From IMG/VR virus record IMGVR_UViG_2660238352_000003: a DNA stretch of 5,629 bases; one strand, 5' to 3'. The translations under genes and the position numbers were made by a program. Shown piece after piece: positions 1 through 1,434 of this stretch. The DNA is from a virus. Lineage: Duplodnaviria; Heunggongvirae; Uroviricota; Caudoviricetes. Under the pieces are notes generated by a model. That model searched no databases, was not told the DNA's origin, and worked only from the letters and a program-made list of their open reading frames with translations. The stretch's first letter is position 1. Every line of letters starts with the position of its first letter.

Positions 1-289
1 GCCCTGACCAAAAGAGTCGAGGTCGTTGACTGAAACGGTTATGATCTGACGCGTCGTCGTGCGTCGTTTTGCAGAGTAGAATTGCGCCATTGGTTTTTCC
101 GGAGCGAAAGGCTATAAGCGGCATACTGACGCGGTAATTACGGCCCAGCGGTTCACAAATCACCTTCTGACATTCACGGTCAACCAGGCTAACACGTAGA
201 ACATGCCCTGCAGGCGTGGTGTACCACTGACCCGGACGAGGACAACGGAAAGTATGATTGGTAAACCGTTTGAAAATATTCCGGATCAT
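1..289 (-). CDS. Hypothetical protein, N-terminal part only (gene runs off the window start); Cys/His-containing N-terminus
   Basis: The minus-strand frame starting at ATG 289..287 stays open for all ~96 codons to position 1, while all three plus-strand frames here have stops. The ATG overlaps the TGA stop of the upstream 382-aa ORF (ATGA at 286-289), suggesting translational coupling. Hand translation begins [61 protein letters not shown]. The composition is Arg/Cys-rich and no family was recognised, hence moderate confidence. Confidence 0.45.
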
Positions 290-1434
290 TTGCGCCCCCT
301 TACCTCTGAAGGGTTCAGCGACAAATTTATGAGACTGGCCAGTAGCGCCGCGTCGTTGATGCGGTCATACAGACTTACAGCCAGCGGGGATTCGGCTTTT
401 GCCAACATGGGATAAAGCTGCTGCAGCCAGACCTGATGAATTGATGAAATGTAGGAATAGAGAACGCTGGCGTTATGTGCAACGTCGCTCAGTACAGAGG
501 GATTTGAAAGCTGTTTCTCCATCTGGTTAAAGGCATTGATGTATGCCTCTTTGAACTGGGCAGCACGTTTACCCGTGAAACCCATAGCAAGAAACGCAAA
601 GCCGTCGCGGGTTATTTGATAGCAAGGTAGTTTGCGGCCTGTGCAATCGGTGTAATCACTCACCGAAAAATTGCGGGAAGTGAATGATGCAGAGCATTCA
701 AGCGTGCGGATCTTTTTCAGTACATCGTCATGACGTTTGGAGAAGAAGTTGGCAACAGCCAGGGATGAAGTAACAGCCTGACCATCAACGATGGCAATTT
801 CAGGTTGAGTGAGGGTTGGGATCGTAGCCATGATGGCAGCCTCCGTTGACTGTGGAAAACTTCCACCACCGGAGCTGCGAAACTCACTGGTGGCAGACTG
901 AACAGGGTTCGCAGTACCGGCGTCAACGGAGACCGGCGAGCCTTTCGGCTCCCCTGCCCAGCCCACCATAATTCTGGCGTGCGTGAGCGCGGACGATAAA
1001 AAAGACGCTGGCGCGTCATATATCGCCGTTGACAATTCCGGGCTGCGACCCCCGGCACCCGCTTTATAAGGTGCCTGAGCAGTGTAACGTCCCGGAATTG
1101 CAGAATCAATATGCTGGTGGTCCTTCACACTCAACAAAATCACGCCTGAATTTCCACAAAGGACTAAAGCACTCATGCTGGTAGTCTTTGCGAAGATAGA
1201 TAACGCGCTGTGTTTCTGGCTCCCAACGAATAACATGAACATAAAGTCCTCTTCCGTCACGAAACCAGCGGTTAAGTTCCTGCACAACTCGCCCCCCACA
1301 GTCAGGTAAAGTTCTCTGTGGTTACTTACAGCCAGGTGATTTGGTAATCTGCATTCATGCCGTAACAACAGGTGTGCAGCGACACTGACCACCAGCTGTT
1401 GCGACAAACGGTTATTTGCCGTTAAACTGTTCAT
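286..1434 (-). CDS. Phage early protein with a Rha-family domain (382 aa) in the replication-gene position; unrecognised N-terminal domain plus low-complexity linker
   Basis: ORF track 286..1434 (-). Residues ~215-300 (IVDGQAVTSSLAVANFFSKRHDDVLKKIRTL ... YQITRDGFAFLAMGFTGKRAAQFKEAYINAFNQMEKQL) match the recalled hallmark of the phage regulatory protein Rha family (Phage_pRha). The start ATG 1434..1432 overlaps the stop of the upstream gene (ATGA) and is preceded by GGAG. An alternative internal start at ATG 831..829 with a strong GGAGG SD lies just before the Rha domain. Confidence 0.7.
   Translation of the reverse strand: MNSLTANNRLSQQLVVSVAAHLLLRHECRLPNHLAVSNHRELYLTVGGELCRNLTAGFVTEEDFMFMLFVGSQKHSALSIFAKTTSMSALVLCGNSGVILLSVKDHQHIDSAIPGRYTAQAPYKAGAGGRSPELSTAIYDAPASFLSSALTHARIMVGWAGEPKGSPVSVDAGTANPVQSATSEFRSSGGGSFPQSTEAAIMATIPTLTQPEIAIVDGQAVTSSLAVANFFSKRHDDVLKKIRTLECSASFTSRNFSVSDYTDCTGRKLPCYQITRDGFAFLAMGFTGKRAAQFKEAYINAFNQMEKQLSNPSVLSDVAHNASVLYSYISSIHQVWLQQLYPMLAKAESPLAVSLYDRINDAALLASLINLSLNPSEVRGRK
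841..1033. repeat. Iteron-like repeat cluster inside the 382-aa ORF: CCGTTGAC x2 direct plus 1 inverted, nested inverted repeats, adjacent AT-rich patch
   Basis: CCGTTGAC at 843-850 and 1026-1033; the inverse GTCAACGG at 923-930 (10-bp inverted repeat CTCCGTTGAC 841-850 / GTCAACGGAG 923-932). ACCGGCG is repeated at 916-922 and 932-938. CTGCGAA (875-881) / TTCGCAG (908-914) is interleaved with CCACC (863-870) / GGTGG (889-893). An AT-rich stretch with the palindrome GACGCTGGCGCGTC lies at 996-1026. Confidence 0.3.

Follow-up and report, generated by a model that had tools for sequence, protein, structure and literature searches.

The 5,629-nucleotide stretch analysed here (IMG/VR virus record IMGVR_UViG_2660238352_000003, Caudoviricetes; hereafter the window, at its whole length) very probably carries a prophage operon in which a conserved chain of overlapping stop and start codons runs through a composite 382-codon open reading frame (ORF) and reaches a 74-codon phage gene that was cut and fused to the chromosomal gene rlmD. 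A first-pass annotation had described this region as three consecutive early genes linked by ATGA overlaps. The overlaps of that description are real and conserved, and they belong to an operon built on such overlaps, whereas the middle ORF appears to be composite and the third gene a truncated stump. Unless otherwise indicated, conservation was assessed in a set composed of the window and 55 distinct relatives (56 sequences, protein identity 84-100%).

Overlapping stop and start codons

Both overlaps reported by the first-pass annotation were recovered, TCAT at 1431-1434 and at 286-289 being ATGA on the minus strand:

1431-1434, minus strand: ATGA in which the ymfL stop TGA (1433-1431) shares bases with the leader-ORF start ATG (1434-1432); kept in 56/56 sequences
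286-289, minus strand: ATGA in which the rha stop TGA (288-286) shares bases with the ATG (289-287) of the 74-codon gene; kept in 56/56 sequences

Their conservation in related prophages, which had been proposed as a check, was thus complete among the aligned sequences. The overlap between the ymfL stop and the following ATG was also encountered in e14, ST64B, Klebsiella, Flotzy and YeP2 relatives. In YeP2 (L098 1002-1368), the CII-like stop, a 53-codon leader (unannotated in the record), the DUF4222 gene and replication gene O follow each other through three junctions, all of them ATGA. Likewise, the interval from ymfL to RusA in the intact relative L005 displayed eight consecutive overlapping junctions (ATGA, ATGA, GTGA, ATGA, GTGA, TAATG, ATGA and ATGA).

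The tetranucleotide itself is not enriched on the minus strand of the window, with 21 occurrences observed against approximately 24 expected, and an A is expected to precede a TGA stop by chance about one time in four. These frequencies, which match base composition, are what would be anticipated if the overlaps were functionless coincidences. Yet we consider such a coincidence extremely improbable: although ATGA is not rare, its retention at both junctions in every aligned sequence places the overlaps beyond chance, intact relatives carry the series of eight junctions, and the ymfL junction persists as far as Yersinia YeP2, where the chain of CII-like gene, leader, DUF4222 gene and O is entirely of the ATGA type. 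The two ATGAs are best regarded as two links in a longer and otherwise ordinary chain, a conserved design feature of the operon.

A Shine-Dalgarno-like sequence (GAGG/AGGGGG) is located 6-12 nt upstream of ATG 289, within the 3' end of rha. Overlapping stop and start codons with translational coupling are known in phage and bacterial operons, trpE-trpD and trpB-trpA among them. In the window, the overlaps would keep the operon compact and a terminating ribosome may restart at the adjacent start codon; the arrangement of the junctions suggests translational coupling. The earlier proposal that the linked genes form a co-translated complex found no supporting evidence; around them lie a CII-like regulator, an antirepressor module and, where the phage is intact, replication genes.

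The 74-codon gene and its junction with rlmD

The elements encountered between the second overlap and the left edge of the window are the following:

94-289, minus strand: first 65 codons (plus 1 nt) of a 74-codon phage gene of the SfV orf38/mEp460 gp42 family (phrog_1153, DUF4222-like)
between 93 and 94: host/prophage junction located by three-way alignments, with host DNA up to 93 and prophage from 94
1-90, minus strand: 5' end (first 30 codons) of chromosomal rlmD, which codes for the 23S rRNA m5U1939 methyltransferase; start codon 90-88

The frame opened by ATG 289-287 is indeed free of stop codons up to the window edge (base 2), i.e. over 96 codons. It had been taken for the beginning of a gene continuing leftward, an interpretation that did not hold. 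The gene following rha was 74 codons long in 55/55 relatives, where it overlapped the next gene of the replication module by ATGA (38 sequences) or GTGA (17 sequences). In the window, it is cut after codon 65 at the 93-94 junction and joined to rlmD; its last nine codons and its stop are missing, and the copy spans positions 1-66 of the 74-position phrog_1153 profile (E 5.4e-39). Residues 1-65 are 98% identical to the mEp460 protein.

In the relatives the gene is real, as the first-pass annotation had supposed. The homology search that it had suggested (tblastn) returned full-length copies in 65 phage records with 52-100% identity, and variable sites were distributed 5/2/16 over the three codon positions. 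The Arg and Cys content that had seemed odd is a family trait, R3, C16, R18, R32, C45 and R50 being invariant. Nor is the gene unannotated, for phage records and PGAP already list the 74-aa product. Profile-profile comparison (hhalign) related this protein to DUF4222 with a probability of 86% and an E value of 5e-6 over 44 columns. A weak cross-match was recorded between phrog_1153 and phrog_1343 (E 0.0023), and no Pfam match was obtained for the 74-aa protein at E<=0.1. PDB sequence searches with the DUF4222 and 74-aa alignments yielded nothing usable.

All 5426 complete E. coli genomes contain the sequence of window positions 1-93 with 100% identity, as the 5' end of rlmD. The identity to the annotated rlmD of E. 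coli O157:H7 was 93/93, the match ending there 3 nt upstream of the rlmD start codon, on the side facing barA. Translation from ATG 90-88 gives the N-terminus of RlmD, and a spliced reconstruction reached 433 aa. It lies on the same strand but in a frame different from the one opened at 289. The gene that runs off the left window edge is rlmD and not a phage gene, and the last 31 of the 96 open codons are rlmD read accidentally out of frame. About 35 stop-free codons are expected by chance in roughly one case in five. With a normal rlmD flank, a stop would occur 11-13 nt to the left of the window, and the predicted chimera would count 100 codons, 65 from the phage and 35 from out-of-frame rlmD.

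The native barA-rlmD intergenic region, including the rlmD promoter and Shine-Dalgarno sequence, is replaced by phage DNA, and the new sequence upstream of rlmD, which follows the truncated gene on the same strand, is CCGGAAAAACCAATG. Relatives displayed two alternative C-termini after codon 65 (…SGK-NMKHLGGAA and …SGK-MFKRLGGVA), which go with different replication modules downstream. The window is broken at this very codon, which therefore looks like a recombination-prone mosaic boundary. The rearrangement would have removed everything past codon 65, including the replication and late genes on that side, and would have joined the stump 3 nt before the rlmD start. Devoid of its own promoter and ribosome-binding site, rlmD would then have become the last gene of the phage early-right operon, just behind the Rha (isrK/C4) module, and its transcripts would come from either the early-right promoter of the phage or the isrK-type promoter-like element described below. 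It thus seems that rlmD lost its own expression signals and is now situated behind a repressor-controlled phage operon.

The joint was seen in this one sequence only and in no other genome or metagenome, which is the first of several observations that weigh against the reading proposed here (the others concern the 382-codon frame, see below). It could be an artefact of assembly, i.e. a chimera, instead of a genomic rearrangement. The junction sequence was absent from the 5426 complete E. coli genomes, the GTDB representative genomes and the JGI metagenome contigs; a junction 35-mer and a 22-mer had no match in GTDB representative genomes or JGI metagenomes. An 18-mer did produce 53 matches, which were discarded as chance occurrences in unrelated phyla. 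The three-way alignments revealed no usable microhomology, no insertion sequence (IS) element or IS end and no att-like sequence at the joint, which is also far from the integration sites of relatives with an identical Rha protein (e.g. next to yjjG). Exact-protein searches with the 382-aa and 192-aa products retrieved only intact prophages, located elsewhere on the chromosome. Furthermore, an IMG/VR provirus contig (L012, see below) starts at window position 211, short of the joint. On the other hand, the break is clean, with 100% identity on each side, and the opposite end of the phage segment is abnormal as well (an IS66-family element after yfdR), which fits a decayed, rearranged prophage. 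Such prophages are common in IS-rich Escherichia and Shigella genomes. The absence of the junction elsewhere is weak evidence, the collections searched holding no Shigella-labelled complete genomes. A chimeric assembly is thus judged improbable, and it keeps some weight because the junction was found nowhere else.

Composition of the 382-codon frame

The first-pass annotation had listed a 382-aa gene at 286-1434. This interval resolved into the following elements, together with a promoter-like sequence and an upstream ORF:

1286-1434, minus strand: YmfM-like leader ORF with ATG 1434-1432 and GGAG 10 nt upstream; homologous to e14 YmfM over its first ~13 codons (MNSLT..NRLSQQ)
1106-1285, minus strand: DUF4222 gene of 59 aa, +2 frame with respect to the 382-codon ORF; GTG start preceded by a G6/GAG run resembling a Shine-Dalgarno
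1081-1109, minus strand: promoter-like element with -35 TTGATT (1109-1104), a 17-nt spacer and -10 TACACT (1086-1081), which would start the isrK-like RNA at ~1074
998-1074, minus strand: isrK-like small RNA (sRNA), corresponding to the a1/b1 decoy region of the C4 system (a1 1048-1043, b1 1033-1026); Rfam RF01394, 58.7 bits against a gathering threshold of 50
886-973, minus strand: C4 antisense RNA of the P1/P7 immI type (b2 931-922, a2 914-908); Rfam RF01695, 78.8 bits against a gathering threshold of 45, model positions 1-87 of 87
832-969, minus strand: orf45-like upstream ORF with AUG 969-967, spanning the C4 RNA and its targets a' (881-875) and b' (850-841)
286-831, minus strand: Rha-family (AnrP/Ant-like) antirepressor gene proper, 181 aa, with ATG 831-829 and Shine-Dalgarno GGAGG 844-840 within b'

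In our reading, the 382-codon ORF is a longest-ORF call laid over several separate elements and not one gene. The leader frame continues in frame over all the elements downstream of it. The block GGAGAAACTAACGCATGAAC, which includes its ATG and GGAG, was kept in seven divergent phages. In two of these the CII-like gene ends ~60 nt earlier, so that coding for the C-terminus of the CII-like protein does not by itself explain why the block is conserved. Window-type leaders displayed 6 synonymous and 10 non-synonymous changes, i.e. little constraint at the protein level. The first ATGA is therefore a genuine conserved overlap, which in our reading opens a YmfM-like leader and not a 382-aa regulator.

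The DUF4222 ORF scored 51 bits with Pfam PF13973 (cut-off 27) and matched phrog_1343 with an E value of 7e-36. It was detected by tblastn in 115 phage records down to 40% identity, stands alone in its own frame in records of Yersinia, Morganella and some E. coli phages, and is annotated by PGAP. Differences between divergent pairs were concentrated at the third DUF4222 codon position (4/4/14, 15/11/33, 15/15/35 and 20/17/35 for the three positions). Among close relatives, polymorphisms of the overlap comprised 7 synonymous and 4 non-synonymous changes in the DUF4222 frame, against 1 and 10 in the frame of the long ORF. These distributions argue that the DUF4222 frame is the one under selection at 1106-1285.

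An inverted repeat (CCACAG-N14-CTGTGG) was observed on the minus strand at ~1296-1321, followed by a G run that doubles as the Shine-Dalgarno-like element of DUF4222; a similar CCACA…TGTGG arrangement occurs in Flotzy. It may be a structure controlling DUF4222 initiation. A programmed -1 frameshift from leader to DUF4222 was also considered, as the G6 run of the window could slip. It was rejected since the run is not conserved in e14, Flotzy and YeP2, and every lineage provides DUF4222 with a Shine-Dalgarno and a start codon of its own.

Annotation of the region is uneven. PGAP splits it into DUF4222 and a 296-aa Rha, and the product recorded for identical or near-identical DNA is a 'Rha' of 382, 387, 321 or 296 aa, accompanied or not by the DUF4222 gene (L157 versus L164; L001, L162 and L163 versus L004-L011). 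The choice of start site is clearly unstable across annotation pipelines. One of these records, L157 with its 321-aa Rha, was examined as a natural interruption of the long ORF and dismissed, being identical to L164 (387 aa) over ~440 nt at the head of the ORF; the two differ in annotation only.

The isrK/C4 RNAs and the Rha gene

The -35 and -10 hexamers of the promoter-like element agree with the consensus at only 8/12 positions, which is why the promoter scan did not list it; both hexamers were identical in 9/9 alleles, with few changes in the spacer. A promoter role may be supposed by analogy with the Gifsy-1 isrK promoter (PMC4825925). The TGA of DUF4222 (1108-1106) lies within the -35-like hexamer. 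An intrinsic terminator, GACGCGCCAGCGTC followed by T6, was found at 1017-998 by the terminator scan. The stems of isrK were invariant across alleles and are hence uninformative on covariation.

The C4 RNA was more instructive. Over nine alleles, its three stems (27 pairs) were 100% paired, and in 8 pairs, distributed over two stems, both partners vary. Its b2 element (931-922), situated in a hairpin loop, forms 10 base pairs with b' (850-841), seven of them covarying, and b' includes the GGAG of the Shine-Dalgarno. Pairing of the single-stranded a2 (914-908) with a' (881-875) was mostly kept. Likewise, a1:a2 and b1:b2 were 100% paired, with 11/14 covarying pairs. In a shuffle test of the pairing scores of the C4 stems, a2:a' and b2:b', 0/500 shuffles reached the observed values. 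The RNA pairings are thus demonstrated by covariation. They also account for the variation at 1105-800, the most variable part of the region, which displayed no codon-position bias (48/47/48), in contrast to 27/27/80 in rha (799-289).

The orf45-like ORF is in frame with rha without any stop in between, i.e. orf45 and rha are fused in a frame of 227 codons. The Rha product was recognised by Pfam Phage_pRha PF09669 (106 bits against 29.9) and, for the 181-aa product, by TIGR02681 phage_pRha (104 bits against 46, E 3e-30), with model position 5 at residue 12. We place the Rha gene proper at 831-286 because TIGR02681 begins ~8 residues after Met 831 and b' covers the Shine-Dalgarno of this start. 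The module would be of the P1 immI/Gifsy-1 isrK-orf45-anrP type, in which the antisense RNA would control translation of the antirepressor, and C4 antisense control of Rha translation is accordingly probable by analogy. A Pfam Phage_ASH (PF10554) match on the 382-aa product (residues 117-212, positions 799-1086) coincides exactly with the interval that holds the isrK-like RNA, the C4 RNA and its targets. The 'Ash' family may be largely a translation of conserved RNA genes and orf45.

One protein, several genes or a concatenation

The remaining observations that count against our reading are three: the frame of 382-387 codons was open in 55/55 relatives, which represent four alleles of C4 specificity; the 382-codon ORF is given as one protein by several gene callers and in phage records; and the Phage_ASH match just mentioned falls within its product. 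They call for consideration of two other interpretations.

The first is the model that emerged from the first-pass annotation, namely three intact co-translated genes (192 aa, 382 aa and more than 96 codons continuing leftward) whose products form a complex for replication or regulation. Both ATGAs and the open frame are indeed present, and Prodigal-type calls in relatives list products of 192, 382 and 74 aa with 4-nt overlaps. This model is nonetheless very improbable. Window positions 1-93 are rlmD in another frame, and the third gene, 74 codons long in 55/55 relatives, is truncated here, which already refutes the model for that gene. The 382-codon ORF encloses two Rfam RNAs and, in a different frame, the DUF4222 gene, and its interval 1105-800 is devoid of a coding signature.

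The second interpretation is that the 382-codon ORF would be translated whole from ATG 1434 (e.g. on pR transcripts after induction) into an N-terminally extended Ash-Rha protein, which we regard as unlikely. The DUF4222 gene and the RNAs would then be embedded in, or overprinted on, the sequence of this extended protein. In favour of this interpretation, the frame is open at 382, 383 or 386 codons in 55/55 relatives, indels inside the ORF were all multiples of 3, a conserved GGAG and ATG stand at its head, and phrog_821 covers residues 61-382. The +1 frame over DUF4222 is moreover stop-free, for which the probability under local codon usage is only 0.03-0.13 per lineage. These arguments are met by the substitution patterns: in the DUF4222 overlap 10/11 polymorphisms are non-synonymous in the long frame, divergent pairs change the second positions of that frame most, and the isrK-C4 segment lacks codon bias, its variation being explained by RNA pairing. 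In addition, the interval 1104-970 would be stop-free with a probability of ~0.15, a second frame being nearly open there too, and an intrinsic terminator is located inside the ORF. We therefore retain as plausible that the long ORF is a fortuitous in-frame concatenation of a leader, an open alternative frame and orf45-rha.

How the alternative frame stays open is of some interest here. The +1 frame over DUF4222 was free of stops in ST64B, Stx1_499, YeP2 and the window, and had only a terminal one in four further lineages (L092-L102 set); stops were present in more distant DUF4222 homologues (phiNP, Morganella). Val and Leu in DUF4222 are mostly encoded by GTT/GTC and CTT/CTC, avoiding TGA, TAA and TAG in the +1 frame. 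The probabilities for the isrK segment and for the DUF4222 +1 frame are suggestive, and only suggestive, of selection for a long open frame. A combined proposal, to which we give little credence, would be that the frame from 1434 is kept stop-free on purpose without amino-acid conservation, and that e14 YmfM activity (see below) comes from the DUF4222 protein or the leader peptide. Ribosomes released at the ymfL stop would restart at 1434 and cross DUF4222, the isrK-like terminator and the C4 RNA into rha. Their transit would melt the RNA structures and lead to C4-independent synthesis of the antirepressor once pR fires.

The ymfM gene of e14

In K-12, the e14 gene ymfM (L156 1323-1661) is homologous to positions 1106-1434 of the window. 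The K-12 'cell division inhibitor YmfM' (112 aa) contains the DUF4222 ORF in the +2 frame, with an AAGGAG-N8-TTG start. Polymorphisms were counted in 35 distinct e14-type sequences, a sample taken from IMG/VR that comprised only sequences of at least 98% identity. Upstream of DUF4222, the leader displayed 13 synonymous changes and 1 non-synonymous change in the YmfM frame, a ratio indicating that the e14 leader is a real coding sequence. Within the overlap, every common polymorphism was non-synonymous when read as YmfM and synonymous when read as DUF4222. The selected frame of e14 thus appears to flip from YmfM in the leader to DUF4222 in the rest of the gene.

Parts of a preprint by Ansari et al. 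(bioRxiv 10.1101/2020.11.19.390815) present e14 ymfM as an SOS-inducible division inhibitor; in these parts, filamentation was assigned with the whole ymfM ORF cloned, the two frames not being separated. The activity could be owed to the embedded DUF4222 protein or to a short leader peptide, and not to the annotated 112-aa product.

Prophage identity and neighbouring features

By megablast, positions 94-5364 of the window matched SfV, mEp460, cdtI, Stx phages and many E. coli prophages with 93-99.6% identity, and the leftmost ends of all phage and prophage matches were at window 91-94. This segment is most reasonably seen as the remnant of an SfV/mEp460/cdtI-type lambdoid prophage. Annotated relatives display the gene order cI; cro and ymfL (CII-like); 'Rha/antirepressor'; a 74-aa hypothetical; replication genes; and PerC, Dam, LexA-like and RusA. 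The early-right operon (cro, ymfL and onward) would read leftward in the window, on the minus strand. The gene opening the chain of overlaps discussed above is:

1431-2009, minus strand: ymfL, a CII-like regulator of 192 aa (NF041471 phage_reg_YmfL, 181 bits against a cut-off of 90; phrog_101, CII-like transcriptional activator)

Phage homology ended at ~5364, just past yfdR (4822-5358). The end of an IS66-family ISCro1-like element follows from ~5384 (~25 nt after yfdR), with a transposase C-terminus at 5428-5613 on the minus strand. The phage segment is abnormal at its right end as well, with an IS as its border there and rlmD as its border on the left. The provirus contig L012 (IMGVR_UViG_2663762849_000006, 5378 bp) was 100% identical over the 1290 nt compared; it begins at window 211 and, judging from its length, would reach ~5588. 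The window probably derives from the IMG genome of this contig (2663762849), from which the provirus caller would have trimmed both abnormal junctions. In the cI-yfdP interval (window ~3113-3423, plus strand), PGAP annotates a 'frameshifted hypothetical protein' at the equivalent position of a near-identical prophage of strain JNEC-KY204.

Implications

The finding of overlaps matters little in itself, overlapping stop and start codons being routine in lambdoid early operons. Three corrections carry more weight. What had been called a partial gene is a phage gene that was truncated and now reads into rlmD, and extending it leftward would have given a false protein. The widely propagated calls of a 382-aa 'Rha/antirepressor' and of an 'Ash' domain, for their part, cover a DUF4222 gene and two regulatory RNAs. 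Thirdly, in the source strain rlmD appears to sit behind a repressor-controlled phage operon, without a promoter or ribosome-binding site of its own, a relocation that could affect 23S rRNA m5U1939 methylation. Finally, the frame flip in e14 ymfM provides a lead on which product causes SOS-inducible filamentation.

Comparison with known systems

Every component described here belongs to a known family or system, and both genes and RNAs are near-identical to those of described phages. The closest systems are SfV orf36-orf37-orf38 and mEp460 gp40-gp41-gp42, together with cdtI, Stx2a_WGPS2 and ST64B sb40-sb41, which share the same genes in the same order with 93-98% nucleotide identity over 94-2300. 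The SfV/mEp460 group displays the same two 4-nt overlaps and the 74-aa gene after rha. Yet, its 74-aa gene is complete and overlaps a replication gene, whereas the window copy is interrupted at codon 65, next to rlmD, and neither replication nor late genes are present in the window.

Likeness to textbook coupled operons lies in the 4-nt ATGA/GTGA overlap and in the Shine-Dalgarno-like sequence inside the 3' end of the upstream gene. Coupling is established in those operons, while here sequence and conservation suggest it.

The e14 ymfL-ymfM pair of K-12 shares with the window the overlap between ymfL stop and ATG (AACGCATGAAC), the opening leader codons (MNSLT) and the DUF4222 ORF placed in the +2 frame. 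Its leader frame, of 112 aa, terminates close to where DUF4222 does and is followed by a replication gene, whereas that of the window runs into the C4/Rha module. Moreover, purifying selection acts strongly on the e14 leader (13 synonymous changes against 1 non-synonymous), which is not the case for window-type leaders (6 and 10).

In the immI region of P1 and P7, reportedly described by Citron and Schuster in 1990 and by Biere et al. in 1992, a c4 antisense RNA with elements a1 b1, a2 b2 and a' b' is said to control icd-ant. The motifs of C4 are listed in PMC2864571. The window resembles this system by a C4 RNA above the Rfam gathering threshold, by a2 and b2 complementary to pairs of sites both upstream and downstream, and by a downstream b' that lies over the ribosome-binding site ahead of the antirepressor; its alleles differ by compensated changes, as does the specificity of P1 versus P7. 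It departs from immI in that the controlled Shine-Dalgarno is that of the Rha gene itself (ATG 831), with a Rha-type product, in contrast to the Shine-Dalgarno of a separate icd gene and an Ant antirepressor in P1/P7.

With isrK-orf45-anrP of Gifsy-1 in Salmonella (Hershko-Shalev et al. 2016, PMC4825925), the window shares the order of an isrK-type sRNA with terminator, a short ORF and a Rha/Ant-like antirepressor gene. Gifsy-1 orf45 is translated, is conserved in nucleotide and not in amino-acid sequence, and ends in an AUGA overlap with the start codon of anrP (PMC4825925). The window differs from Gifsy-1 at this junction, its orf45 having no stop and being in frame with rha; the same source notes that in S. 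dysenteriae orf45 and anrP 'seem to be fused' (PMC4825925). The two modules also differ in their surroundings, that of Gifsy-1 lying next to antQ and that of the window inside the early-right operon, after ymfL and DUF4222.

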